DNA of 64,000 nt from an uncultured delta proteobacterium (lineage in GTDB: Bacteria; Myxococcota_A; Polyangia; Polyangiales; Houyiibacteriaceae), in contig CAVOVB010000001.1 in assembly GCA_963699755.1 (NCBI GenBank), forward strand, positions 1,376,001-1,440,000, read 5' to 3'. Under the pieces are notes generated by a model. The model was not told the origin of the DNA. It worked only from the letters and a program-made list of their open reading frames with translations, and searched no databases. A program made the translations under genes and the position numbers. This document shows positions 44,913-61,607 of this stretch, piece after piece. Within the stretch, counting starts at the first letter, position 1, and the number at the start of each line of letters is the position of its first letter.

Positions 44913-44994
44913 GCGGCGAGATTAGCGCCTTGCCGCTCTGGTGTCAGGGGGGTGCTGGCGCGACCGCGCTCGGCGGTCTACTTGGATCACGGAC

Positions 44995-46215
44995 ATGCAA
45001 GAGACTCAGACATCGGTGGACGAGAGGCTGGAGATCCCGGCAATGGCCTCATCGCGCGGTCGAGTAGGCGCGCTCATCGCCGGCCTCGTCATGGTGGGAG
45101 CTGCGATGGGGATCTACTTCTTGACCCGTGGTCCAGACGCGAGTCCCTACCGGGCCACCGAGGTCACCAGGGCCTCGATCGTGAACGAGATTCGGGTGAC
45201 CGCAAGCATTGTCCTGACCGACCAAGTGGAGGTGCCCGCGCCCGTCGAGGGACAGCTCGTCGAGGTGGCCGTTCAATCGGGAGACCAGGTGGAGGAGGGT
45301 CAGCTTCTCGCGCGGCTCGACAAGGTGTCCGCCGAGGTTGCCTACCTCATCGCCCAGGCAGACTCGCAGGTCGCGCGCGCGCGCGTCTCCGAGGCGGAGG
45401 CTTCGGCGGAGCGCGCGAGCCGATCACTCGAGCGCACCAATCGGCTCGCCGACAAGGGGCTGGCGAGTGCGAGCGACCTGGAAGCGACGCGTTCCGAAAT
45501 GACCAAAGCGCGGGCGTCTCTCAAGGCGGCCCGAGCTGAGCACTTGGCGGCCCTCGAGCGTGTTTCTCTGCGAGGGCGCGAGCGAGACCAGACCGAGATC
45601 GTCGCTCCGCGCGCAGGACTCGTGCTCGAGGCCCCGTCTCATACCGGCATGGTCGTTGGGCCACGGACACGACTCTTCCGAATCGGTGCTCCGCTCGACC
45701 AGGTGAACGTCGAGGCGCCAATAGGCGAGGCCGACATCGGCGATATGTCGCTCGGCCTCAGCGCCAAGTTCGAGGTGCCCACGTATCCGGGCCGTATCTT
45801 CGAAGCCACCGTGAAGCACATCAGTCCCGACCCCAAGACCGAGCATGGGGCAATCTTCTACATGGTGAAGCTCGCCGCGAACAATCCAGATCACGCGCTC
45901 CTACCTGGCATGACCGCGCAACTCAGGATCAAGGTCGCCCAGGTCGACGATGTGCTGGCGGTGCGCGAGGCGACCCTTCGATTTACGCCTGAGGGCGCCC
46001 CTGAAGCGCCCCCCCGCAGTCGCGTCTGGCGGATCCGCGGGACGGAGCTGGAGGAGGTCCCGGTCGAGGTCGGTTTGTCCGACGGGGCACTCACCGAAGT
46101 CCGCCCGAGCAACCCCGACGACCTTCAAATCGCCGACTCGATCGCAATCGGGCTCGCGTTGGACGGTGACAGTGGCGCCGCGGCTCCTTCCTTGTCGCTC
46201 AAGGGACATCGATGA
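44995..46215 (+). CDS. Efflux periplasmic adaptor (MacA-like)
   Basis: N-terminal TM, lipoyl half-motifs, coiled coil, LLPGMTA. Confidence 0.9.
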   Translation: MQETQTSVDERLEIPAMASSRGRVGALIAGLVMVGAAMGIYFLTRGPDASPYRATEVTRASIVNEIRVTASIVLTDQVEVPAPVEGQLVEVAVQSGDQVEEGQLLARLDKVSAEVAYLIAQADSQVARARVSEAEASAERASRSLERTNRLADKGLASASDLEATRSEMTKARASLKAARAEHLAALERVSLRGRERDQTEIVAPRAGLVLEAPSHTGMVVGPRTRLFRIGAPLDQVNVEAPIGEADIGDMSLGLSAKFEVPTYPGRIFEATVKHISPDPKTEHGAIFYMVKLAANNPDHALLPGMTAQLRIKVAQVDDVLAVREATLRFTPEGAPEAPPRSRVWRIRGTELEEVPVEVGLSDGALTEVRPSNPDDLQIADSIAIGLALDGDSGAAAPSLSLKGHR

Positions 46216-46913
46216 CTGCTACGTCGATCGTCGAGGCTCGAGGCATTCGAAAGGTGTTTCCGAACATGACGGCGCCCGTGCTCGACGGGGTGAGCCTGCG
46301 CGTCGATCGGGGAGAAATCGTCGCGCTCATGGGGCCGTCGGGCTCGGGGAAGTCGACCTTGATGAACATCCTCGGCTGCCTCGACGGTCCGTCGGACGGT
46401 TCGTATTCGCTTGGGGGCAAGGACGTTTCCACCTTGAGCTCGCGGGAACGCGCCTGGGTACGACTTCACTACATCGGTTTCATCTTTCAATCGTTTTACC
46501 TGATCGCAGACCACACCGTCCTCGAGAACGTGACGCTCCCGCTCTACTACGCTGGCGTGGATCGGCACCAGCGCGAGGCGCGCGCCGTCGAGCTCATCGA
46601 GCGGGTCGGCTTGGGTCATCGATTAAGCCACAGGCCGGCGCAGCTTTCGGGCGGTGAGAAGCAGCGCGTGGCGATTGCCCGCGCCGTTTCGGGTCAGCCT
46701 CGCCTCCTCCTTGCCGATGAGCCCACTGGCGCCCTCGATACGAAGACCGGCAACGAGGTCATGGAGCTGCTTCTAGAGATCCACGAGGCCAGAGCCCTGA
46801 CCTTGATCATCGTGACGCACGACCCGGAGATTGCGCAGTATTGCCACCGTCAGATCTATCTGCGGGACGGAAAGATCGTCCCCGAGGGAGGTCGGCATGC
46901 CGCGGACGCGTAG
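46212..46913 (+). CDS. ABC transporter ATP-binding protein (MacB/LolD family)
   Basis: GPSGSGKS, LSGGEKQRVAIAR, LADEPTGALD. Confidence 0.95.
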   Translation: MTATSIVEARGIRKVFPNMTAPVLDGVSLRVDRGEIVALMGPSGSGKSTLMNILGCLDGPSDGSYSLGGKDVSTLSSRERAWVRLHYIGFIFQSFYLIADHTVLENVTLPLYYAGVDRHQREARAVELIERVGLGHRLSHRPAQLSGGEKQRVAIARAVSGQPRLLLADEPTGALDTKTGNEVMELLLEIHEARALTLIIVTHDPEIAQYCHRQIYLRDGKIVPEGGRHAADA

Positions 46914-48111
46914 TGAGGTCGTCGGACGTGCGGTCCGCACTGCGATCCGGAATCCCGGCCGCACGTTGCTCACGATGCTGGGGCTCGCAATTGGCGTCGG
47001 TGCATTCCTCGCCATGGTGAGCTTCGGAAGCGGAGCACGCAGCTCGGTGATGGAGCAGTTTGAAATCCTGGGAACCCGGGTCGTCTACATCTGGACGAAC
47101 ATGGGGCGTCGCGACTTCGGAGGAGCTGCGAGGCCGCTGACCGATGCCGATGTCGACGCGTTGCTGCGTGACTCGATGACGATCGAGAGGGTGGTTCCGC
47201 GCATCACCGAGGTGCAGAACGTGAAGTCGGTCTACCGAACGTCTCCCATCAACGTCACCGGAACGAAGCCGGACTTCGTCCACATTCGCGAGTGGCCGAT
47301 GCTGATGGGAGGGATGTTCGACGAGACCGACGTCGTGCAGCGGGCGAAAGTCGCCGTCATTGGCACCACCGTTGCGCGCGAGCTCTTCGGCCGCCGCGAC
47401 CCGGTGGGGCAGACCATCACGATTGGGGCCAACCTTCCGTGCCGAATCATCGGCGTTCTGGTTTCGAAGGGCGAACAAACCACCGGCGAAGACATGGACG
47501 AGATCGTCTTGATCCCGGCGACAACCTACCAAGCATTTCTCGGCACGCCCATCGGCTACCACGAGCTCATGGTGCAGGTCCGAGACCTCAGTCTCATCGA
47601 GACGGCCATGCTCGAAGCAGTGCCGATCATGCGACGCTCGCATCGTCTGGCCGATATCGAGGAAGACGACTTCAGGATGGCGAGCCCTGCGCAAGCTGCG
47701 CAGCTCGCACGCTTCGTTTCGACGGTTCTCACCGGCCTACTGGTCGGTATCGCCGCCGTGTCGTTGCTCGTCGGTGGAATCGGCGTGATGAACATCCAGT
47801 TGGTTTCGGTCGCCGAACGGACTCAAGAAATCGGCATTCGATCCGCGATCGGCGCCTCGCCGAGACAGATTTTGATGCAGTTTCTCGCTGAAGCCGTGGT
47901 CTTGTCGTTCACCGGTTCATTGGCAGGCGTGGCGCTAGGTTGGCTCGCGTCCACCATGGTCGGTCGGGCCATGACCTGGTCGGGCAATCTTTCGCTCCTG
48001 ATGATGATGGCTGCGGCTCTTTTCGGAACCAGTGTCGGCGTAGCTTTCGGGTATCTTCCGGCGCGACGCGCAGCGCAGCTCGAGCCCATCGAAGCGCTAC
48101 GCCATGAATGA
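46897..48111 (+). CDS. ABC transporter permease (MacB/FtsX family)
   Basis: RTLLTMLGLAIGV, GGIGVMNI..SVAERTQEIGIR, PIEALRHE. Confidence 0.94.
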   Translation: MPRTRSEVVGRAVRTAIRNPGRTLLTMLGLAIGVGAFLAMVSFGSGARSSVMEQFEILGTRVVYIWTNMGRRDFGGAARPLTDADVDALLRDSMTIERVVPRITEVQNVKSVYRTSPINVTGTKPDFVHIREWPMLMGGMFDETDVVQRAKVAVIGTTVARELFGRRDPVGQTITIGANLPCRIIGVLVSKGEQTTGEDMDEIVLIPATTYQAFLGTPIGYHELMVQVRDLSLIETAMLEAVPIMRRSHRLADIEEDDFRMASPAQAAQLARFVSTVLTGLLVGIAAVSLLVGGIGVMNIQLVSVAERTQEIGIRSAIGASPRQILMQFLAEAVVLSFTGSLAGVALGWLASTMVGRAMTWSGNLSLLMMMAAALFGTSVGVAFGYLPARRAAQLEPIEALRHE

Positions 48112-49427
48112 GGTGGAACATGAATATGGTCTGCGAAAGGAAGGGCGGAGGGGTGGCCGTGCTGGTCGTGCTCGCCGCGATGCTCGCGCCGACAGCGGTA
48201 TCGGCTGAAGTCGTCACACTGCAGAAGCTAGAGACGCTCTCGCTTCAGAACCAAGCGCATTGGGAGGCCGTCGAAGCGGGCGCGGTGCGGGCGGACGCGG
48301 AGGTCGACGCGGCTCGAGCGGGGAAGATGCCCACATTCTGGATGAACATCATGGGCGTCGCGGCACCTGGCTCTTACATCGAGCGTGTCCAAACCGTGGA
48401 CGGGCGCGTGGTCAACGTCCAGGCGTCCCCCACGGTTACGGAGAGCACAGCGTTTCGGCCAAACATTCGGTACGAGGGGACGATCGACATGCGCGCACCC
48501 ATTTATGACAGTCAGACCCGGGCCTCGATCAAGGCGGCAGAAGCGTATCGAGCCGCTGCGGAGGCCAACTCTGGCGCGTCTCGCGAGACTGTGCTCAGCA
48601 TGGTGCGCGCCGCCTATCTCGATTGGTTGGCGACCGAGCTGACACAGGACTTGGCGCTAGGCTCCGCAGAGGAGGCCAAGGCGCAGCGCGAACGCATCGA
48701 AGAACGGGTCTCGGACGGGGATCGCGCGCCTTCCGAGCTCGAAACTGCGCGCTACGAAGAGCTCCAGGCAGAGCTCGTTGCGGCGGATGCCAGGGCGAGA
48801 GCCGTCGCCGCCAAGCGGCTCTTGGAATCTGCGGTCGGAAGCGAGCTCTCCCCGGACGCAGAGCCGGACAGCTCGCTTCTGAGCATGGACTCCAGCGAGC
48901 TCGACTCGGATAGGGGTTGGGAGGCGGAAGCGCTCGAACGGCAACGCGACGCGGCGCTTCAAGAGGCGCGGATGCATCGCAAGGGTCGAGCCCCGGTCCT
49001 CGCCATCATTGGCCAAACCGGTCTGGCCGGCGTCAACGAGCGGGTGTTCCCGATGTATCGACTCGGTCTCAATCTTGCGGTGCCCCTCTGGGACGGAGGC
49101 AAGGCGGTCGCTCTGGCGCGCGCTGCCGACGCCCAAGGCAGCGAGTTTGGCGCGCGTGCCCGCGAAGCGCGCCTGGCCCGAAACGACGCGCTGCAACAGG
49201 CCCTCCTCGATCGGGAGCACAGCGAAGAGCAACTCGATCTCGCCGATCGCCTCGTCGCCGTTTCGGAGATTCGCGTGGAGCAAGCACAGACGAGCTACGA
49301 GCTCGGCGCAGGGGATGTCGAGACTGTCGCCGACGCGCGCGTCGCGCTCCGGGATGCCCAATCCCGCCGCGTTCAAATCCAAGTCGCCCGCGCCGATGCC
49401 ATTCTGCGGCTGGGCGGCAAAAACTGA
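48108..49427 (+). CDS. TolC family outer membrane protein
   Basis: Signal peptide, two OEP-like repeats, LAVPLWDGG, YELG; operon context. Confidence 0.85.
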   Translation: MRWNMNMVCERKGGGVAVLVVLAAMLAPTAVSAEVVTLQKLETLSLQNQAHWEAVEAGAVRADAEVDAARAGKMPTFWMNIMGVAAPGSYIERVQTVDGRVVNVQASPTVTESTAFRPNIRYEGTIDMRAPIYDSQTRASIKAAEAYRAAAEANSGASRETVLSMVRAAYLDWLATELTQDLALGSAEEAKAQRERIEERVSDGDRAPSELETARYEELQAELVAADARARAVAAKRLLESAVGSELSPDAEPDSSLLSMDSSELDSDRGWEAEALERQRDAALQEARMHRKGRAPVLAIIGQTGLAGVNERVFPMYRLGLNLAVPLWDGGKAVALARAADAQGSEFGARAREARLARNDALQQALLDREHSEEQLDLADRLVAVSEIRVEQAQTSYELGAGDVETVADARVALRDAQSRRVQIQVARADAILRLGGKN

Positions 49428-49428
49428 G

Positions 49429-51498
49429 CTAGAAACGAAAGACGTACTCGACCCAGAGCCAGTGCTCAGGGTTGGGCACGCGCGCTTGCGTCGACTCACG
49501 CTCATCTACAAACACGCGGAAGTCGTAGCGAAACCGCAATACGTCGCGGTCGCGCAAGTCGAGCGCGACGTCTAAATGCGCCCACAGCCGTTGGGGAAGG
49601 CGATGATTGTCCCAGACGTCGTCGAAGTCGTAGCGTACACGGAGGGCGATGCGCAGCCGGTCGAGCGGGCGGGTCGTGACGTTCAGGATTGCAGCCATGT
49701 CCTGCTGAAGCCGGTGGCCCCCGAGCTTCCCCTTCCAGCGGTACCGAAACTGCCCCGACAAGCCGACTCGGCCTTGTGGCGCATAGGCGAGCTGCGTCGC
49801 CGCCACGAACCGCTGGCCAGCACCATTTCGATACTCGCCCCAGGTTGCCCAGGTCCATGACGAGCTGATTCGCCAATCCGTACGCGCGAAGACGAGCGCG
49901 TTGAGCAGACGGGAAGAGAGCTGACGCCATCCATCGATGAGCGCGCGGAGCCCAACGTGGCGTCCAAGCCGAGCTGTTGCGCGAAGTCGAACCCCGGCCT
50001 CGTCCGTCGCCCGCAATCCGCCTAGCTCGTCCGGAGCCGAGACGGATCGCGCATAGGGATTCGCGAAACGCGAAGTGTAGTATCGCAGCGAAGCGTCGAG
50101 CTCGCTATTGGGCAGCGTGGTCACGCTTCGAAGCACGGCGCCGTATCCGCCTCTACCGGCAGGCTGAGCATCGAAGCTCCGCGCCACCTCGACGAAGAAG
50201 TCTTGCGAACCGAAGCCGAACGCTGCGTCTAGCCCCAGAGCTCCGAAAGGCCCACCGAACGGCCTGCGCGAAAAATCTTGGAAACCGAGCTCGGCGCCTC
50301 GGACGAGCCACCTCGGCACCGAGCCATAGCCGGTGATGCCGAGATGAGCCCGGTCCCTCCAGAAATAGCTCATGTTCGCGCCTGCAAGCCCCTCGGCGAA
50401 CATCGCCGGCAGGGTGGCGAACCTGGCTGTGCTCGCGGGTGCCCTTTGGTCGACTGTTCTCACGTAGACTCGCGGCGACACGCAGCCCGGGTCGGCATCT
50501 CGGCGAGGGTCGGCACAAGTAGCCGCATCGACGAGCTCGATCTGCGGAATGCGGTGGACTTGATACGAGCCCCATGCGTAGGCCTGCAGCCATCCTTTCC
50601 CAAGACGAAGCTCCTTCAATCCTATGGCGATGCCTGCAAGGCGATTCGTCCATGCGAAGTCGGGCGTGACCCTCGACTGCGGACCGGCCGAGCAGGGCGA
50701 TTGTGCAAGCTCTCCGGCCGCGCGTCTACATCGGAGCGCAAGCTCGTTGTCCCATCGAAGCTCGTAGTCACCGAACGAACCGTTCGGCGCCACCTGGTCG
50801 GTCACATCAAACGTCAGCCGTTGCCCGAAACCAATGCGATAGGTTCCTGCCACGATCTCCCAGTCGTCGTCCTTCCATTCGACATAAAGCTTGGGAACCT
50901 CGAACCGTACTCCTTCGGGCGCGGCGCTAAGCGCATTTCGATTCGGATCCCAGCGAACCCGACGCAAGCCGTTTCGCGTCAAGGCCCCGGCTATGCCGAT
51001 GTCCAAGTTGCCCAGCGTCCGGACCCGCGCCTGGAGCGCGGACGCGGGTGGTAGTCGGTCGTATCGGCCCGTCCATCGTCCTTGGAGCCGCAGCGAGCCC
51101 AGGGTTCGTGACCTTCCGCGCTCCGGATCGCGGAAGACGACGAATGCGCGAAGGGAACGCGCCAAGTTCGACTCCAGCACGCCGGCCTCGATCAACTCGT
51201 CCAAGCCGTGAATCGTCCCAGCCGCGTTGCGATAGGCGAGGAGCTCGTCGACCTGCGCGTAGTCCAGGTTTGGAAGTAGATACAAACTCTCCCGTCCGGC
51301 CCGATTGAGGTCGACGCGAGTCTGATGAAGGAGCAGGAGTGCGTTGAAGGACTGCTCCGAGATTTGCTCGGTGGCGAGGAGGTCGTACAGGTCTTCCTCG
51401 GTTTCGACGTCGATGAAGATTTCGTACTCGGCCGCAGATGCCGTGCGAGCGGAGAGCAGAAGAAGGAAGCCGAAGAACAGGGCGTGCCTCAGGAGCAC
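49429..51498 (-). CDS. ComEA-type helix-hairpin-helix domain fused to a predicted outer-membrane beta-barrel
   Basis: Signal peptide, VDLNRAGRESLYLLPNL...LLAYRNAAG, amphipathic beta-strands, terminal WVEYVFRF. Confidence 0.8.
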   Translation of the reverse strand: MLLRHALFFGFLLLLSARTASAAEYEIFIDVETEEDLYDLLATEQISEQSFNALLLLHQTRVDLNRAGRESLYLLPNLDYAQVDELLAYRNAAGTIHGLDELIEAGVLESNLARSLRAFVVFRDPERGRSRTLGSLRLQGRWTGRYDRLPPASALQARVRTLGNLDIGIAGALTRNGLRRVRWDPNRNALSAAPEGVRFEVPKLYVEWKDDDWEIVAGTYRIGFGQRLTFDVTDQVAPNGSFGDYELRWDNELALRCRRAAGELAQSPCSAGPQSRVTPDFAWTNRLAGIAIGLKELRLGKGWLQAYAWGSYQVHRIPQIELVDAATCADPRRDADPGCVSPRVYVRTVDQRAPASTARFATLPAMFAEGLAGANMSYFWRDRAHLGITGYGSVPRWLVRGAELGFQDFSRRPFGGPFGALGLDAAFGFGSQDFFVEVARSFDAQPAGRGGYGAVLRSVTTLPNSELDASLRYYTSRFANPYARSVSAPDELGGLRATDEAGVRLRATARLGRHVGLRALIDGWRQLSSRLLNALVFARTDWRISSSWTWATWGEYRNGAGQRFVAATQLAYAPQGRVGLSGQFRYRWKGKLGGHRLQQDMAAILNVTTRPLDRLRIALRVRYDFDDVWDNHRLPQRLWAHLDVALDLRDRDVLRFRYDFRVFVDERESTQARVPNPEHWLWVEYVFRF

Positions 51499-53114
51499 AA
51501 GGGATTCGCGGCGCCGGGCGTACCCAAGTCACCCTCTCCGTAGGCCTCCGTGGCATCACAGCGATTACCCAGCTCGTCGATCTGAGTTGCCACACCAGCG
51601 CTGGAGCGCTCGTAGCTCACCGAGTCGAGGACTTGCTCACCGACATGCAAGCGGATCGTCTCATCGCCGTTGTTCAGAGCCAGAGACAGCTCGGCATCTA
51701 CAGCAGGTAGCCCCCCATTTTCCAGGGGATTGGCGTTTCGCGCAAAGACGACGTGAGCCCCTGCCGCGACTTCCAGACAATCCTCGCGCTCGAGTGCGGC
51801 CGTGCTGGAGCTGCGATCGGAGAGCACGAGCCCGTTGAGGTCGACGGCGCTGTCGAAGCGAACCTCGACCCACTCGCCGTCGCGGTTCCCGACCTCGCGC
51901 GGGTTTGCCATCCACTCGCTGATCGAAGCCTCGCCCGGAACCGGACTGAGGATCGCCCGAGGCTCTCCCTCGTCGAGGCACATGCCTGGACCGAGGAGGA
52001 TCGGACAACTAGGGTTGGCGTCGCCGGGGGTCCCGAAGTTGCCGTTGATGTACTCGTCGTGCGGCAAGGCGAGGCAGACCTCGTCATTCGGGTCGAGCTG
52101 CCAGGCCACGCCTTCGACCGTGCTCTCATAGCTCACCTGGTCGAGGACGATGTCGCCCGCAGCTGCCACGATGCTCCGCGAACCGGAGTTGCCCAGGCTG
52201 AATCCTAGCTCCGCGTCGACGCGGGGAGCCGCCGTCGGACTCGCTCCGAAGACGACCCGTGCGCCCGCGCCGACCGGAAAACAGGTTTCCTCTTCGAAGA
52301 CCGTGAGCAAGGCATCGGGCGCCGGCCCGAGTTGAAAGCCGTTTAGGTCAGCTTCGGCACGGAAGAGAACCTCGACCCACTCGAAATCCGCATCTGCACC
52401 CTGGGGATCGGCCATCCATTCGCGGAGCTGCACCTCGCCTGGCTCTGGGAGTTGGATTGCCCGGCGGGTTCCGGATTCGAGGCATCCACCCGGCGGCTCC
52501 TCTACCACACAAGGGCTGTTCGGCGCGCCAGGGGTCCCGAAATTGCCTGGAAAAACCTCGTCGACCCCCTCCGGGGTCGTGCACCAGTGCTTCGCCTCGT
52601 CGTTGAGCTCGTGGTCCGGAGCGAACCTCCCGTCGAGCTCGAGCGCACGGCCGTCTGTGGTCCGAGCGTAGCCCACCTGATCGATGAGCACCTGGCCGCA
52701 GAGAAGGGCAACCCTTGCATCCGAGTTTCGAAGGCTGCCGAGCGTGCTTCCGTAACTGTAGTCGACGTGCGGCGGCATCGAGTCTGGCGCTGCATTTCCA
52801 ACGACCAAGTAGTCGCCGGCCGCGATCGAGAGGTCGAAGAAACGATGGGTGGTGGCGCCGGTCCCAGCCGAGCGGCTCGAGCTCAGTGTGAGACCGTCGA
52901 GCGAAAGCGGGACCTCGCTTGCGTTGAAGAGCTCGATGTACTCACCATCGCCGTCGCTCCCGTCGGGGTTGGCATGCAGCTCTGTGATGACGACGTCACC
53001 AGGCGCTAGGTCATCATCACAGGCGCCCGTGGCAGCGAGCTCCTCCCGCATGCAACTTCCGAGCACCAAGAGCAGGCAAACGAGCCCGCGCGCGCAATTC
53101 CAATCACCCGCCAT
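51489..53114 (-). CDS. Lipoprotein with three lamin-tail (LTD) domains
   Basis: LGSC lipobox; three repeats of ExxAxP...E(Y/W)(I/V)E...GTPGxxNxxC. Confidence 0.85.
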   Translation of the reverse strand: MAGDWNCARGLVCLLLVLGSCMREELAATGACDDDLAPGDVVITELHANPDGSDGDGEYIELFNASEVPLSLDGLTLSSSRSAGTGATTHRFFDLSIAAGDYLVVGNAAPDSMPPHVDYSYGSTLGSLRNSDARVALLCGQVLIDQVGYARTTDGRALELDGRFAPDHELNDEAKHWCTTPEGVDEVFPGNFGTPGAPNSPCVVEEPPGGCLESGTRRAIQLPEPGEVQLREWMADPQGADADFEWVEVLFRAEADLNGFQLGPAPDALLTVFEEETCFPVGAGARVVFGASPTAAPRVDAELGFSLGNSGSRSIVAAAGDIVLDQVSYESTVEGVAWQLDPNDEVCLALPHDEYINGNFGTPGDANPSCPILLGPGMCLDEGEPRAILSPVPGEASISEWMANPREVGNRDGEWVEVRFDSAVDLNGLVLSDRSSSTAALEREDCLEVAAGAHVVFARNANPLENGGLPAVDAELSLALNNGDETIRLHVGEQVLDSVSYERSSAGVATQIDELGNRCDATEAYGEGDLGTPGAANPLCS

Positions 53115-53180
53115 ATCGACCTCCCACCGTTGTGGTTTCGGGCGTTATCGGACGGCGGTTTGGTCGGTTTCGTCCGAGGC

Positions 53181-54293
53181 TCAGGGCAGGGAGGGAAGCG
53201 CAACCTGATCAGGCTCGGTGACGACGATTTGAAGCGTCCGGTAGTTGCCCTTCTCGTAGCGCTCCACCGTCCCTCGAACGGTCACAGGCTCTCGTCTGAA
53301 GCGTTCGATCCCGCTTTCGCGAAACACGTCGCGATCGAAGAAGATGACGGGAAAGCTCTTGTTGGGCGCGGTCTCCAAAGAGACGCGAACCAGGCCGCCG
53401 AAGTGCTGGATTCGGTCCACGGTGGAAAAGACCGTGACCTTCTTTCCTAGATTCTGTTCGAGTCGGTCCTGCACATCCCATTGCGTCAACAGGATGAAAT
53501 CTTCTCGGCGATTTGCTTCGTGCTCAAACGCACGAATGAAATCGGCGCGCGCGTCCCACCAGGCTTTGCGTTCGTCGTAGTCGCCATAGCCCTGGGCACT
53601 CGGATTCCAGATTCCGCGTTGCGCCTCTCGAGCGTCGGCTTCCGCGTGCGCGAGTTGATTGTGAAATCGGCGCGAGTATCCGTATTTCGTGAAGTACGGG
53701 CTCATCCCGGCGCGCACGCACTCGACGTTGTAGCTCGTCCAGCGACCGTTCTTCTTCACGAACGCGTACGCGAGGAGGCGTCCGTAGTTTCCCCGGATCT
53801 CCTTCGGGTCATCGCGTTCCAGGCGAACTTCGTCCGCACCTTTGAAAAAATTCTCCGCAAACTTAGAGGCCTCTTCCCCCATCGGCGTTCCAGCCTTCAC
53901 GGGCCGCGCCGCGTCGCCACGCTTTGTTCTCAGGTATTGTTTGAAATCTTTGGAGGCCGCTGCCCGGTCGGTCTTGCTGTGAAATCTCTCCTCGGTGTCG
54001 AGCGAAAGCAATCGAACGGAACCGTCGATCCCTTCGACCCGGATGGTGTCCCCGTCGATGACTGGATCGTCTGCCAGCCGGTACTCTCCGATCAGCAGAC
54101 CCTCTTGGTCCGATCCGCTTCGATCCCTTTCGCGTGGTCGCTCGGCAGCTCCGCTATGCGCCTCCGTGGCGTCGACCTGCTGCACTGGCGTCTCGACCGT
54201 AGCACCTCGGTCGCAACCCACGCTCCCGACGGAGATACACGCACTCGACAGCCAGATGCTCACCCACCTTCGCATCAGCCGTAACCTATTCAA
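53181..54293 (-). CDS. Thermonuclease (SNase-like) with C-terminal OB-like domain, exported
   Basis: VIDGDTIRV, VRLLSLDTEE, YGRLLAY, EADAREAQRGIW; start uncertain (54293 or 54275). Confidence 0.88.
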   Translation of the reverse strand: MNRLRLMRRWVSIWLSSACISVGSVGCDRGATVETPVQQVDATEAHSGAAERPRERDRSGSDQEGLLIGEYRLADDPVIDGDTIRVEGIDGSVRLLSLDTEERFHSKTDRAAASKDFKQYLRTKRGDAARPVKAGTPMGEEASKFAENFFKGADEVRLERDDPKEIRGNYGRLLAYAFVKKNGRWTSYNVECVRAGMSPYFTKYGYSRRFHNQLAHAEADAREAQRGIWNPSAQGYGDYDERKAWWDARADFIRAFEHEANRREDFILLTQWDVQDRLEQNLGKKVTVFSTVDRIQHFGGLVRVSLETAPNKSFPVIFFDRDVFRESGIERFRREPVTVRGTVERYEKGNYRTLQIVVTEPDQVALPSLP

Positions 54294-54363: not shown

Positions 54364-55845
54364 CTATTTGTCCTCCGGCGACTCTACCCTGGCCAATCGA
54401 CGCGCTAGCCCCTTCTTGAAATCGAGCTCCATCTGTCGGCCGATCTGAATTCGCTGGGCTTGCGGTGAGCCCGCGCCGTGCAGTGACTCAGTGAGGTAGC
54501 CGACCGCGTTGCGGCCCATGGTCATGTTTTCGATCAAGCGCAGGATGCGGATGCGGGCTTCGGTTGGGACATCGGCTCGGCCTTTGAGGTACTTGTCGAG
54601 AAGCGCGCCGATCTCCGGGTGCTTCAGCTCTTTCTCCGATGGCGCGGTGCTGACCAGGCCACCTGCCAAGTCCTGCGCCAGCCTTCCGATTTCGAAAGGC
54701 ATCCTGGTGACGTGGTGCTTGCAGACGTTGGCGAGCATGTCGTCGTTCAAGTAGCAGCCTGACTTGGTGGGCCGTCCCTGGTATGACGACGCAATGCCCG
54801 CCGCGTACATCGTCTCGTTGAGATGAGTCATCTGCACGAGCTTGTCTTTGATGTGCGAGGCCTTGTCTATGCCGTTGTATTCCGCGATTTGCGCGGCTGC
54901 ACCAATCAGGACGTCGCCGACCCCCGTTTTGCAGACATAGCTGCGGCGGTGGTAGCAGGTGAATCGTTCGACCAGCATGGACGCAAACTCGTACTCGCCG
55001 CTCATGAAGACATGATCCCAGGGGACGAAGACCTCGTCGAGCACGACCATGGCCTCTTGGCCAGAGAAGTCCGCGTTGCCGACGTCGATTGAGCCCGCTT
55101 CCATGCTGCGGGTGTCGCAGGATTGTCGTCCGTAGATGTAGGTGATGCCAGGTGCATCCACGGGGAAGGCGGCCACCACTGCGTAATCTTTGTCGGCGAT
55201 CCCTAGGCGCATGGTCGGCATGGCGATGATCCAATGCGAGTTGATACAACCGGTCTGGTGGGCCTTGGCGCCCTTGAGCCAAAGGCCTTCGTCGTTGCGC
55301 TTGGTAATGTGTACGAAGAGATCGGGATCAATCTGTTGGTGCGGGGCTTTGCTCCGGTCTCCCTTGACGTCGGTCATCGCGCCGCCGACGACGTAGTTTC
55401 GCTCCTGCATCGTCGTCAAGAATGCCTTGAGGCGCTCGTGGTATGGCGTGCCGTGCTTCTCGTCGATTTCGTAGGTGACAGAATAGAGAGAATTGAAAGC
55501 GTCCATGCCGACGCAGCGCTGAAAGCATGTGCCGGTGTTCTGGCCGAGCTTGCGCTGCATGACGTTTTGGGCGACCAAATCTTCGGCACTTCGTGCAACG
55601 TGAAGGAATCGGTTGACGCGTTTGCCCGTCAGGGACGAGTCTGTTGTAGCGATCGCGGGCTCACGAAGTGCAAGCTCGTAGGTTTCGGCTACTGCGTTGA
55701 TCGAGGGCCGGATCATCGGATGATCGACCGGCTCGTCGACTAGCTCTCCGAAGAGAAAGACCCTCAGATTCCGGCCGCGAAGGCTGTCGATGTACTCGTC
55801 GCCCGTTTCGATTCGTTTCGGGTTCTCGCGGTCGCCGTCAGGCAT
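54364..55845 (-). CDS. abfD: 4-hydroxybutyryl-CoA dehydratase (HpaB/AbfD family)
   Basis: TGTCFQRCVGMD and YHRRSYVCK ([4Fe-4S] ligands), MTDVKGDR, ESLHGAGSPQAQ. Confidence 0.88.
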   Translation of the reverse strand: MPDGDRENPKRIETGDEYIDSLRGRNLRVFLFGELVDEPVDHPMIRPSINAVAETYELALREPAIATTDSSLTGKRVNRFLHVARSAEDLVAQNVMQRKLGQNTGTCFQRCVGMDAFNSLYSVTYEIDEKHGTPYHERLKAFLTTMQERNYVVGGAMTDVKGDRSKAPHQQIDPDLFVHITKRNDEGLWLKGAKAHQTGCINSHWIIAMPTMRLGIADKDYAVVAAFPVDAPGITYIYGRQSCDTRSMEAGSIDVGNADFSGQEAMVVLDEVFVPWDHVFMSGEYEFASMLVERFTCYHRRSYVCKTGVGDVLIGAAAQIAEYNGIDKASHIKDKLVQMTHLNETMYAAGIASSYQGRPTKSGCYLNDDMLANVCKHHVTRMPFEIGRLAQDLAGGLVSTAPSEKELKHPEIGALLDKYLKGRADVPTEARIRILRLIENMTMGRNAVGYLTESLHGAGSPQAQRIQIGRQMELDFKKGLARRLARVESPEDK

Positions 55846-55879
55846 CGTCCCTCCAAGCTGGGCTACTCTACCATGGGGC

Positions 55880-56749
55880 TCAAAGGGGGGCGCCCAGCAG
55901 CTCGGTCGAGGTTTCCTCCACGAAAAACCGGCCTTTGTCGTTCCGGGCGATTCGTCCGAGGGCGACCTCGTGGTCGTGCGTGAAGAAAAGACGTCCGCGC
56001 TGTTCGATCAAACGCGTTAGCAAGTCCCTCTTTTCATCGATCAGCTGCTCCGGATACCGGTCGTAGCCCATGGTGATCGGCAAATGCACCCAGGCACGCC
56101 CTGGGACGAGGTCCGCCACAAACACCACGGGACCATCGTCGCCCGGGATCTCGGTCAGCATGAGTCCGGGAGTATGCCCTTCGGAAAGCCAGAGCTTGTA
56201 GTCCGCGCCGAGGGTTTCGGAACGGGATCCTTTCACGACTTCGAGCCGCCCGCTCTCCTCGAGCAGAAGGGGAAGCTCAGGAATGAACGAAGCCCGGTCT
56301 CGAGCGTGTGGATGCTTGGCGCGCTGCCAGGCCTCCGCGCTGACCACGAATGTAGCCTTGGGAAATAGGAGGCGCATCGGCTCTTCCGGCTCATAGGCGT
56401 TGAGCAAACCCCCGGCGTGGTCGAAATGAAGGTGTGACAGGACGACGCAGTCGATGTCCTCGTGCGCGAACCCAGCTCGTGTCAGATTGTCGAGCAGGAC
56501 GTGGCGCTCCTCTTGGATGCCAAAGCGGTCGCGGAGCTGAGGTGGGAAGAAGGCACCGACCCCGGTCTCGAACAGGATGTGCCGACCGCCGTCTTCGATC
56601 AGCAATGCCCTGCACGCGAGCGGAATGCGATTTCGTTCGTCCGGTTCGACCCATTTGTGCCATAACGCGCGAGGAGCGTTTCCAAACATGGCGCCGCCGT
56701 CGAGGCGCTGTGAATTGCCTAGAATCGACCATGCGTTGCGTTTCCCCAT
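55880..56749 (-). CDS. MBL-fold metallo-hydrolase (YtnP-like)
   Basis: [27 protein letters not shown]. Confidence 0.92.
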
Positions 56750-56785
56750 GGGCGAAGCCTAGCAGGGCAGGATGCGCGTTTGAAG

Positions 56786-57211
56786 TCAGCGCCTGACGAC
56801 GTACACGTTGCACGCTGCGTGTCGGACCACGCGCTCGGCGACGCTGCCGATGAGCCAGCGCTCCATGCCGCCTCGTCCATGAGAGCCCAGCACGATCAGA
56901 TCGACTCCATGGTTCTCTGCGTAATCGCAGATGGCCCTTGCTGGGGCATGGTCTGCAATCACGGCGACCTCGACCGGAACATCGGATAGAAACTGGTCTC
57001 GTAGCGCGGCCAGCTCGGCTGCGCGCGCAGCGTCGTCGGTCTTGGACACGGGCTCGAGCACGGCTTGCGGAGGAATGAAGGCTCGCGGGTCCGAGATGTG
57101 GATCAAAGTGACCTTGCTGCCGTTTGCTCTAGCGTATTCCCCAACCTCATCGAGCGCCCTCGTCGAGTGTTCCGAGAAGTCGATGCATGCGAGGATATGC
57201 TTTGCCGCCAT
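56786..57211 (-). CDS. Universal stress protein
   Basis: ILACIDFSE, DLIVLGSHGR, IGSVAERVVRHA. Confidence 0.95.
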   Translation of the reverse strand: MAAKHILACIDFSEHSTRALDEVGEYARANGSKVTLIHISDPRAFIPPQAVLEPVSKTDDAARAAELAALRDQFLSDVPVEVAVIADHAPARAICDYAENHGVDLIVLGSHGRGGMERWLIGSVAERVVRHAACNVYVVRR

Positions 57212-58962: not shown

Positions 58963-60492
58963 ATGTCGCGAGACGATCCCACCGAAGTAACACGCCAACA
59001 CGTGTTCAAGCAGAAGGGCCTCTCCAACAAGGAGGAGCAGGCGCGCATCGTCGTGCTCGCCGGCAAGCTTGCGGGCGACAAGTATGCCATCGGAAAAGAG
59101 CTGACGCTCGGCCGCGGGGACAAAGCCGACGTCCAGATGGACGACACGCTCGTTTCGCGTGTCCACGTGCGCATCTTCCAGCACGAGAACGGATCCTATT
59201 TGATCGAAGACCTCGACAGTCGCAACGGCACGCAGGTCAACGGGATGTCGGTGAGTCGGCGGGTGCTCACGTACGGCGACAGAATCCAGATCGGCAGCTC
59301 CTTGCTTCTGTTTGCGCATCACGATCCCATGGAAGAACAGGTCGCGCAGCGGCGCAAGCTCGAGGCAATCGGGCGACTCGGAACGGGAGTGGCACACGAC
59401 TTCAATAATCTTCTTGGTGCCGTGAGGTCGAGCATCGATTTCTTGAACGGCCTTCCCGCGGAAACCAAGGTCAGCGACCCGGACGTGCGCGAAGCATTCG
59501 ACGACATCCGTTCGGCTGCGTCGGCCGCGACCGAGATGACCAGCCGCTTGCTTGGTTTCGCCCGCGAAGTCGAGCGAAGTCATACCGAAGTCGACCTCTC
59601 AGAGCTATGCCACCATGTCGTGCAGCTTGCGCGTCACACCTTTCACCGAAGCATTGCGATCGAGGCCCGGATCGATCGAGGCCTCAAGGTCAGTGGCGAT
59701 CGTGGTCAGCTCCATCAGCTCCTCATGAACCTGCTGATCAACGCCCGCGATGCGATGCCCAACGGGGGGAAGCTCAAGCTCACTGCCAAGAAGGCCGATC
59801 CAATCGACCTCGAGAAGGCGCCCCTCAACCCCTTGGTTGCGCATGCGATCATCACCGTGGAGGACACCGGCATCGGAATGGACGATGCAACGCGAGAGCG
59901 CGCGTTCGATCCCTTCTTCACGACGAAGGGCGACCAGGTTGGTGCAGGCCTGGGTCTCGCCGCGGTGTACGAGATTGCGAAATCGCACAACGGCCACATC
60001 ACTCTGCACAGTGTGCCGAACCGGGGCAGCGAGTGTCAGGTTGTCTTCCCACTCACGAGCGAGCGGACCGTAGTGCCCACGGAGCCGAGTCTTCCGGCGA
60101 TCAAGCTACCGCGGACTCAGCTTCTGATCCTGCTGGTCGACGATGAAGACGTAGTCCGGCGAAGCGCGGGTCGTGTGGTCCGCCAGAGCGGCCACCGCGT
60201 GATCTTCGCACGCGGCGGCGACGAGGCGCTGCGGATCTACAATGAGACACAGCCGCGGCCCGACCTGGTCTTGATGGACCTCAACATGCCTGGGATGACG
60301 GGCGATCTGGCTTTCAGGAAGCTGAAGGAAGTCGATCCCGAGGCGCCGGTGGTATTCGTCTCGGGCTACTGGGACCGCGACCTCGAGCGCGAGCTTCGCG
60401 GCATGGGGGCGCTCGGCTTCGTTCAAAAACCCTACGAAGCTGCTACGCTCCGGGACGCCATCGTTCAGGCGATGACCTCCCAGACTTCATGA
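58963..60492 (+). CDS. Cytoplasmic hybrid histidine kinase (FHA-HisKA-HATPase-REC)
   Basis: FHA LGR..SRVH..SRNGT; AHDFNN; NARDA, DTGIGM, FFTTK; LLVDDE, MDLNMP, KP. Confidence 0.94.
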   Translation: MSRDDPTEVTRQHVFKQKGLSNKEEQARIVVLAGKLAGDKYAIGKELTLGRGDKADVQMDDTLVSRVHVRIFQHENGSYLIEDLDSRNGTQVNGMSVSRRVLTYGDRIQIGSSLLLFAHHDPMEEQVAQRRKLEAIGRLGTGVAHDFNNLLGAVRSSIDFLNGLPAETKVSDPDVREAFDDIRSAASAATEMTSRLLGFAREVERSHTEVDLSELCHHVVQLARHTFHRSIAIEARIDRGLKVSGDRGQLHQLLMNLLINARDAMPNGGKLKLTAKKADPIDLEKAPLNPLVAHAIITVEDTGIGMDDATRERAFDPFFTTKGDQVGAGLGLAAVYEIAKSHNGHITLHSVPNRGSECQVVFPLTSERTVVPTEPSLPAIKLPRTQLLILLVDDEDVVRRSAGRVVRQSGHRVIFARGGDEALRIYNETQPRPDLVLMDLNMPGMTGDLAFRKLKEVDPEAPVVFVSGYWDRDLERELRGMGALGFVQKPYEAATLRDAIVQAMTSQTS

Positions 60493-61607
60493 TCAAGTAC
60501 ATCGGCTCGAAACGGGTACTCGTACCGCACATCGTGCGCGCCGTTTCGGCGTTTCCCGAATCGGGACGCGTGCTCGACTTGTTTTCCGGCACCTCACGGG
60601 TAGCGCGTGGGCTCAAGCAAACGGGCCGTTACGTGATCGCGAACGACCACTTGGCATACGCGTCGACGCTCGCCCTTTGTTATGTGCAGGCCGACGCCGA
60701 TCGCTGGCACGACGAAGCGCGGCAACTGGTCACGCAGCTTTCGCAAGTCAAACCAGAAGCTGGCTACTTCACCAAAGCGTTCTGCGAGGATGCCCGGTAT
60801 TTCCAACCCAAGAACGGCGCACGCATCGACGCCATTCGCGAAGAGATCGTCAGTCGCAACTTGCCCAGCGAGCTAGAGGCGATCGCCCTGGTGTCGCTCA
60901 TGGAAGCTGCCGATCGCGTCGATTCCACGACGGGTGTGCAAATGGCCTACTTGAAACAGTGGGCCTCGCGGGCGTCCAACGATCTCGAGCTTCGGATTCC
61001 GGCGATTCTCCCAGGTCCTGGCGAAGCTCTACAGCTCGATGCGGTCGAGGCGGCGTCGCGGGTCCAGGCGGACATCGCCTATGTCGACCCGCCGTACAAC
61101 CAGCACAGCTATATGGGCAACTATCACATTTGGGAAAGCCTGGTGCGCTGGGACAAGCCCGACACGTACGGGATCGCGAACAAGCGCGTGCACTGCAAGG
61201 AATACAAAAGCGACTTCAACTCCAAGCGTCGCATCCGACAGGGGCTAGAAGCGGTTTTCGAAGCAGTGCGCTGCAAGCACCTCCTCGTCTCATTCAACAA
61301 CGAAGGGCACGTTGACCCTGAAGAGATGATCGAGCTCCTGTCCAAACGAGGGCATGTCGGCGTCGTCGCCGTCGACTTCAAACGATACGTAGGGGCGCAG
61401 ATCGGTATCCACAATCCGAACGGCGAGAAAGTCGGCCGTGTAAGCCACTTACGAAACAAGGAGTACCTCTTCGTCGTGAGCACTCTCCGAAACACGGTTG
61501 ATTCGGTGGTCGAGGCCATCGAGTCGAGCATCGAAAGTGCGGCGCTTGCGTCGCGACCGCAGAAGCGCAAAAGGAAGGGTCATGAATCTGAACGACGTGT
61601 TGAGTGA
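60489..61607 (+). CDS. D12-class N6-adenine DNA methyltransferase (orphan)
   Basis: KYIGSK, DLFSGT, ND, YVDPPY. Confidence 0.92.
   Translation: MIKYIGSKRVLVPHIVRAVSAFPESGRVLDLFSGTSRVARGLKQTGRYVIANDHLAYASTLALCYVQADADRWHDEARQLVTQLSQVKPEAGYFTKAFCEDARYFQPKNGARIDAIREEIVSRNLPSELEAIALVSLMEAADRVDSTTGVQMAYLKQWASRASNDLELRIPAILPGPGEALQLDAVEAASRVQADIAYVDPPYNQHSYMGNYHIWESLVRWDKPDTYGIANKRVHCKEYKSDFNSKRRIRQGLEAVFEAVRCKHLLVSFNNEGHVDPEEMIELLSKRGHVGVVAVDFKRYVGAQIGIHNPNGEKVGRVSHLRNKEYLFVVSTLRNTVDSVVEAIESSIESAALASRPQKRKRKGHESERRVE

Follow-up and report, generated by a model that had tools for sequence, protein, structure and literature searches.

In a window of 64,000 nucleotides (nt) from an uncultured delta proteobacterium of the Houyiibacteriaceae (assembly GCA_963699755.1, contig CAVOVB010000001.1; the window is the whole stretch of DNA analysed, and positions are counted from its first letter), we identified a three-gene operon that combines a nuclease lipoprotein of the SNase family and a lipoprotein of lamin-tail (LTD) repeats with a large predicted outer-membrane barrel carrying a helix-hairpin-helix (HhH) domain. 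We propose, with a probability of about one half, that this operon breaks down external DNA or RNA on the cell surface and passes the fragments into the periplasm as nutrients; the surface location of the trio, its assembly into a complex, transport and a nutritional role are what we infer for it. The genes, given as open reading frames (ORFs) with lengths in amino acids (aa), and the overlap between two of them are as follows.

54293-53181, minus strand: gene 1, SNase lipoprotein, ORF of 370 aa; predicted lipobox Cys27, disordered linker, SNase domain at about 66-232, helical connector and OB fold at 258-370
53114-51489, minus strand: gene 2, triple-LTD lipoprotein, ORF of 541 aa; lipobox Cys21 and Cys-bracketed, acidic LTD repeats at about 32-203, 211-371 and 379-541
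51498-49429, minus strand: gene 3, HhH-barrel protein, ORF of 689 aa; signal peptide, acidic helical region plus HhH at about 23-122 (predicted periplasmic), barrel at 133-688 and a C-terminal Phe
51489..51498, minus strand: 10-nt overlap of the end of the LTD gene with the start of the barrel gene, read from the sequence

These three co-oriented genes for exported proteins, with a 66-nt gap between genes 1 and 2 and then the overlap, lie exactly as an earlier, sequence-only reading of the window had placed them. An overlap of the same 10 nt was called between the two ORFs in 13 of 20 loci from the genus, and suggests that the LTD and barrel genes are translationally coupled. A promoter and terminator scan of the locus gave nothing beyond chance, the listing for the locus named no RNA holder, and the plasmids searched for the locus gave no match. 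All three genes were found in each of 24 genomes of the genus, and their order was kept in all 20 fetched loci, including one with a split nuclease gene, one with a split LTD gene and one truncated at the end of a contig. Because relatives at about 75% identity were labelled Polyangiales or Myxococcales, the source organism very likely belongs to Myxococcota. A single-sequence query with the barrel found none in 16 genomes from other families of the order; profile matches spanning the barrel (E-value 1e-43 or better) were obtained in 77 of 301 genomes of the phylum, representing 25 families, while the other listed profile matches cover the HhH only and one large family gave 0 of 26. Cultured carriers include Nannocystis exedens (WP_096326139.1) and Enhygromyxa salina (WP_146155576.1).

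That the barrel works with nucleic acids is best supported by its repeated pairing with unrelated nuclease folds. From 62 genomes outside the genus with a barrel-spanning match we took 40 distant loci, among which an LTD gene was adjacent or divergently adjacent to the barrel in 35 (34 by Pfam, one by BLAST cluster), an SNase gene was a neighbour in 19 and a gene for a single-HKD, NucT-like PLD protein in 14; one locus had both, and 32 had either. The PLD proteins, which score under the NucT cut-offs and have a lipobox in 10 of the 14 ORFs as called, are presumably nucleases. Two loci (L035:4029-6992 and L036:3815-6877) encode LTD and PLD fusions of about 1000 aa directly downstream of the barrel, besides SNase genes. 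When label changes were counted across the strongly supported branches of a quick 51-barrel tree, the minimum was 3 changes for SNase and 4 for PLD, and the pairing of barrel and nuclease has therefore been rebuilt more than once. The trio is conserved, being complete in all 24 genomes of the genus, and these neighbourhoods back the role in nucleic-acid handling that had been read from the sequence. Other partners were less frequent: an exported metallo-beta-lactamase (MBL)-fold protein occurred near the barrel in six distant loci, where all three proteins scanned resemble the ComEC hydrolase domain, and in one locus without LTD and nuclease genes the barrel is immediately preceded by a gene for an intact ComEA of two domains (L043:6481-7002). 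Nucleotide-catabolic genes were seldom adjacent in the 40 loci (hpt in L031 and, by cluster, in L056). In these two loci, which belong to one family, a hypoxanthine phosphoribosyltransferase gene and a uracil-phosphoribosyltransferase-like gene adjoin the cassette (L031:4320-5657 and L056), which may reflect salvage linkage or plain synteny.

Considering the proteins individually, gene 1 matches the SNase family (PF00565) at an E-value of 5e-12 and 46.6 bits against a cut-off of 21, and its structure model (pLDDT 83.7) superimposes on staphylococcal nuclease 1sta with a Z score of 15.1 and a root-mean-square deviation (rmsd) of 2.5 Å over 133 residues. By alignment, D80, D82, R94, D99, E102 and R172 correspond to D19, D21, R35, D40, E43 and R87 of staphylococcal nuclease, which we take to be its catalytic and metal-binding residues; this set is invariant in all 26 relatives, and Cys27 is kept in at least 90% of them. 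With its catalytic residues intact, the product is a putative active lipoprotein nuclease, presumably exposed at the cell surface. The extra C-terminal domain already noticed in the sequence proved to be a predicted OB fold, as residues 258-370 match OB folds of MCM, RPA, telomerase-factor and tRNA-synthetase domains (Z 9-10.6, rmsd 2.3-3.9 Å, about 85-115 residues). The shared fold is in itself no proof of binding, but with a nuclease fused to it this domain likely binds nucleic acid.

Gene 2 matches the LTD family (PF00932) with an E-value of 9e-26, and the genome has no other LTD match. Two stretches score above the Pfam cut-off and the third repeat is clear in the repeat alignment, so that the description of three Cys-bracketed, acidic LTD repeats holds; each repeat has a net charge of -20, and the protein contains 15 Cys. 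As several Glu and Asp residues (E45, E58, E61, D145, E232 and E248) are invariant in all 34 relatives, the alignment suggests a metal site. Direct DNA binding is unlikely given the strongly acidic sequence, and the protein likely serves the barrel as a scaffold at the surface or as a lid. A predicted complex of the barrel protein (23-689) with LTD repeats 1-2 scored 0.00, which is evidence in neither direction.

The C-terminal part of gene 3 was modelled by AlphaFold2 from 116 sequences as a barrel with high confidence (pLDDT 93.3, pTM 0.89), in agreement with the topology expected from the sequence, and 24 long membrane strands were counted in the DSSP output. Short turns lie on one side of the model, and on the opposite side the loops reach 63 residues, a pattern that would put the N-terminal domain in the periplasm; motifs in the loops are conserved and common to relatives in Bacteroidota. 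The top fold matches were the ushers FimD and PapC (Z 15.8 and 15.0, rmsd 4.6-5.3 Å, 9% identity), with VDAC level at Z 15.0, a generic barrel likeness that makes assignment to a family impossible. Membership of the ushers was rejected, given no usher match in Pfam, the low identity, and the absence of the plug and C-terminal domains from the protein and of chaperone and pilin genes from the locus. TonB-dependent barrels have a plug and 22 strands; membership of that class was rejected as well, since 24 strands are predicted and the Pfam scan of gene 3 gave no match to TonB-receptor families, which were matched eight times elsewhere in the genome. A sequence search of solved structures found no match for the barrel, the HhH part alone giving matches, and look-alikes in the ESM Atlas came from Bacteroidota, Spirochaetota and Cloacimonadota clusters. 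Of the earlier description as an HhH fused to an Arg-rich barrel ending in Phe, the HhH, the predicted barrel and the Phe stand, while the richness in Arg is only modestly true: Arg makes up 13.0% of this barrel versus 6.9-11.8% in nine control barrel segments from the source genome, with a family mean of 10.0%. Strand alternation would place 31 basic and 20 acidic residues at lumen-facing positions (family means 28.7 and 19.6).

The HhH domain is homologous to ComEA and has lost the residues with which ComEA holds DNA. As a single sequence it matched HHH_3 weakly and below the cut-off (E-value 0.0027), and the profile of the barrel family matched the ComEA structures 8dss (E-value 7.5e-14) and 8dfk; the helices are present in the model. 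The GxG hairpin of HhH1 (77-79) occurs in 2 of 116 relatives, with N-L-D in its place in our protein, and position 82, which alignment to 8dss maps to the ComEA lysine (K63 in Vibrio cholerae, K164 in Bacillus subtilis), has Lys in none, Arg in 3 and Asp or Glu in 66 of 114 relatives. The net charge of the domain is -3 here and -2.7 on average, positive in 13 of 110 cases, and residues 23-122 are net negative in all 111; the standalone ComEA of the same genome has both GIG motifs intact and an HhH net charge of +7. According to the available parts of the ComEA papers, changes at K62/K63 and G60 of V. cholerae ComEA abolish DNA binding or transformation, with G60E or G60V rendering the strain non-transformable (PMC3879209), K164A lowers transformation of B. 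subtilis more than 100-fold, and DNA binding is lost in the corresponding Geobacillus variant K166A (PMC9747964). The tethered DNA ratchet that the sequence-only reading had made of this domain is therefore unlikely, given its acidic composition and the missing hairpin and lysine.

Under the feeding mechanism that we propose, the lipoprotein nuclease would bind nucleic acid via its OB fold and then cut it. The acidic LTD lipoprotein, as scaffold or lid, would hold the nuclease close to the barrel, a contact that we propose on top of the observed genetic coupling. Short oligonucleotides and nucleotides would diffuse through the 24-strand barrel, where the long conserved loops and the moderately basic lumen may select among them; for a barrel outside the TonB class with no evident energy source, entry would hence be passive and limited to short products. 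The periplasmic HhH, derived from ComEA and stripped of its DNA grip, would probably be a gate or docking site. Finally, the products would be salvaged, and a CNT-type nucleoside transporter is indeed encoded elsewhere in the source genome. As far as the available portions of the papers describe them, several known systems join similar elements: the ddb loci of Bacteroides thetaiotaomicron encode secreted nucleases together with a transporter of the outer membrane (PMC12478041), Helicobacter pylori NucT is implicated in purine salvage as well as transformation (PMC5714352), and the in vitro activity of the nuclease ExeM is raised by its LTD (PMC6085458).

Relatives outside the phylum are numerous. 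A motif scan of species genomes returned at least 120 loci, of which 80 had flanks and 79 a motif-bearing ORF, mostly from Bacteroidota and allies. The HhH barrels of Bacteroidota, to which the sequence-only reading had pointed, are full-length homologues: 75 full-length proteins aligned to the Myxococcota profile with an hhalign probability of 100 and an E-value of 7.8e-41 over 608 columns covering HhH and barrel. These 75 came via one motif, and most also match profile positions of about 369-699 independently. Their usual partner, in 53 of the 79 listed loci, is a small FadL-like barrel of about 270 aa (weak Pfam matches); comEC directly follows the homologous barrel in six (L088, L108, L117, L149, L151 and L154), four of them Pfam-confirmed and five titled Sphingobacterium, Pedobacter or Daejeonella. 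Two deep loci bridge the Myxococcota and Bacteroidota groups. In the first (L080:5833-14031), the barrel matches the Myxococcota profile at an E-value of 1e-110 and comes after two small FadL-like barrels, one of which has two OB folds and an intact ComEA HhH as fusion partners, a ComEA protein of LysM plus five HhH, and a truncated duplicate of the barrel N-terminus; gspC/D/E-like genes of type II secretion lie downstream. In the second (L092:1-8843), an LTD and DUF5689 protein with a FlgD-Ig-like tail is found with a 5'-nucleotidase and three barrels, of which one is small, one has two HhH and one is FadL-like, a cassette that links the barrel family to DdbD-type domains. Taken with L043, the cassettes of these deep relatives thus include intact ComEA repeats, OB folds, DUF5689 and 5'-nucleotidase. 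We raise, as a tentative idea that we would not yet favour, that HhH-barrels are a widespread, undescribed and TonB-independent class of outer-membrane nucleic-acid channels in Myxococcota and the Fibrobacterota-Chlorobiota-Bacteroidota (FCB) group, which served first as a gate for DNA uptake, with the ComEA, OB and ComEC partners of deep relatives pointing to that origin, and were then recruited in Myxococcota, with the LTD lid and interchangeable nucleases, for feeding on DNA.

Several observations weigh against nutrient uptake by the trio. SNase products carry 3'-phosphates, and a search of the source genome for the 5'-nucleotidase C-domain gave no match. The net charge of the barrel is near 0 when averaged over the family, and, with both HhH and LTD being acidic, only the nuclease and its OB fold look DNA-binding. 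Eight of the 40 distant loci have neither an SNase nor a PLD neighbour, and five have no LTD gene; among the 79 listed Bacteroidota-type loci, searches with the gene 1 SNase and the gene 2 LTD protein found nothing, and the small barrel is the usual partner. In addition, the available part of PMC12478041 describes DNA as a poor sole source of carbon, nitrogen or phosphorus for B. thetaiotaomicron even with ddb.

Among the alternatives, the barrel could be an export or anchoring pore that places the LTD lipoprotein and the nuclease on the surface, with the products entering via general porins, which we consider unlikely. The nearest folds by size are indeed the 24-strand usher translocons, but this likeness is generic at the identity and rmsd given above and with VDAC scoring as high. 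The most constant neighbour of the barrel is the LTD protein (35 of 40) and not the nuclease, and the loss of the DNA-binding residues of the HhH also suits export, whereas the intact ComEA and OB modules adjoining the barrel in deep relatives, and the comEC genes directly after it in 6 of the 79 listed loci, do not. Its frequent partnership with a small FadL-like barrel in Bacteroidota-type loci recalls the pairing of SprA with PorV, and the C-termini of the upstream proteins in L080 and L092 resemble, by eye, FlgD-Ig and type IX secretion sorting domains. The window has no small FadL/PorV-like barrel gene beside gene 3, and the SprA model TIGR04189 gave no match in the source genome, as it likewise gave none in control genomes.

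It is rather improbable that the trio acts to clear or remodel nucleic acid outside the cell, be it of biofilm matrix, prey lysate or foreign origin, without meaningful import, the barrel being a surface platform or a carrier of other solutes. The patchy distribution in the phylum (77 of 301 genomes, 0 of 26 in the large family) and the scarcity of adjacent nucleotide-catabolic genes would fit such a role, as would the effect of the LTD and OB nuclease ExeM on biofilm formation reported in the available part of PMC6085458; it fails, however, to explain why a large barrel with loop motifs common to Bacteroidota is coupled to a nuclease module.

With respect to natural transformation, the sequence-only reading had seen a pilus-independent machine, the barrel standing in for pili. 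PilQ, ComEA and ComEC are encoded elsewhere in the source genome. Across 80 genomes with consecutive numbers in the phylum draw, which are related to one another and make the comparison descriptive only, PilQ was found in 22 of 24 barrel-positive versus 51 of 56 barrel-negative genomes, and ComEC in 23 of 24 versus 54 of 56. As PilQ is equally common with and without the barrel, the barrel is an accessory to the pilus route and not a substitute, and we abandoned that claim. As a separate observation on the ComEA genes, two similar comEA-ssb-pepA regions lie on different contigs of the assembly (G000:C1:1649211 and G000:C7:352180), which fits its contamination figure of 9%.

There is also little chance, in our estimate, that the barrel is the outer-membrane entry for transforming DNA, with the nuclease making ends and the ComEA and ComEC encoded elsewhere completing uptake: comEC immediately downstream of six homologous barrels, intact ComEA genes directly upstream in L043 and L080, and published statements, in the parts available, that the outer-membrane step of Porphyromonas gingivalis competence is unknown (PMC11532111) and that ddb has a relative in a transformation system (PMC12478041) favour it, but the barrel shows no complementarity with the pilus route, the source genome already has PilQ, a standalone ComEA and ComEC, ratcheting by so degenerate an HhH is implausible, non-specific nucleases would presumably destroy donor DNA, and a Riemerella screen gave the outer-membrane step to another barrel, with a carboxypeptidase-regulatory domain (PMC8459023, available part).

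Returning to DNA feeding, the interest of the proposal lies in the route that it implies. Extracellular DNA is a major pool of phosphorus, nitrogen and carbon in sediments, according to the available part of PMC8289736. The outer-membrane routes for DNA in the literature that we found are pilus secretins and TonB-dependent transporters of the DdbC type; if our proposal is true, a structurally different barrel family tied to unrelated nucleases would make a third, new route, and the gene context in Myxococcota hints strongly at what the homologous Bacteroidota barrel, widespread and unstudied, may do. The idea is testable because cultured carriers exist in Nannocystis and Enhygromyxa. In literature searches, which covered only a minority of subscription journals, we found no description of the barrel family or the cassette, and no functional study of the Bacteroidota HhH barrels.

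The surroundings of the trio comprise two groups of genes.

54364-57211, minus strand: genes for Usp, metallo-beta-lactamase-fold and HpaB-like flavin proteins, upstream of the trio and co-directional with it across the genus
44941-49427, plus strand: MacAB-TolC-type operon (membrane fusion protein, ABC ATPase, MacB permease and outer-membrane efflux protein)

As the sequence-only reading had noted, comEC, pil and TonB genes do not flank the trio. The MacAB-TolC-type operon converges on the barrel gene, from which 1 nt separates it, and is beside the barrel in only part of the genomes of the genus. A functional tie to either group was considered and rejected, since these genes are present in loci of the genus but are not recurring neighbours in the 40 distant loci. 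Farther along the window, a gene for a D12-class N6-adenine DNA methyltransferase was found on the plus strand (60489-61607), with no restriction enzyme noticed beside it.

Compared with known systems, the functional class is one known from ddb, and the barrel family itself is undescribed in the literature found. Like ddbABCDEF (PMC12478041) and RA0C_RS04915/04920 of Riemerella (PMC8459023), as described in the available parts of these papers, the locus joins genes for an accessory lipoprotein and an outer-membrane barrel to those for exported nucleases, the type of which varies. It also shares OB-type DNA-binding modules with ddb, as the gene 1 OB fold matches p202 (4jbm, Z 8.2), the comparison structure of DdbD; the DdbD-type domain DUF5689 (PF18942) gave no match in the source genome, with a positive B. 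thetaiotaomicron control. DdbC is a TonB-dependent transporter, whereas gene 3 has 24 predicted strands, an N-terminal HhH and no TonB-receptor match, and its partner is an LTD-repeat protein. Shewanella ExeM, in the available part of PMC6085458, similarly brings LTD, OB and nuclease modules together, there with an EEP nuclease; here two lipoproteins share these modules between them, and a dedicated barrel goes with them. Gene 1 keeps the full catalytic set of the staphylococcal nuclease family. The HhH of gene 3 has the homologous two-HhH fold of ComEA (PF12836, TIGR00426; 8dss, 8dfk and 2duy) and is likewise exported to the periplasmic side, yet it is acidic, fused to a barrel and without the GIG hairpins and DNA-contact Lys. 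The FimD and PapC ushers are the best structural matches and have barrels of similar size, from which gene 3 and its locus differ in the identity, domains and accessory genes given above. The uncharacterised HhH barrels of Bacteroidota and the FCB group (about 680-700 aa) are full-length homologues with an equally degenerate HhH, and are usually partnered by a small barrel and sometimes comEC, in contrast to the LTD lipoprotein and nucleases found here.

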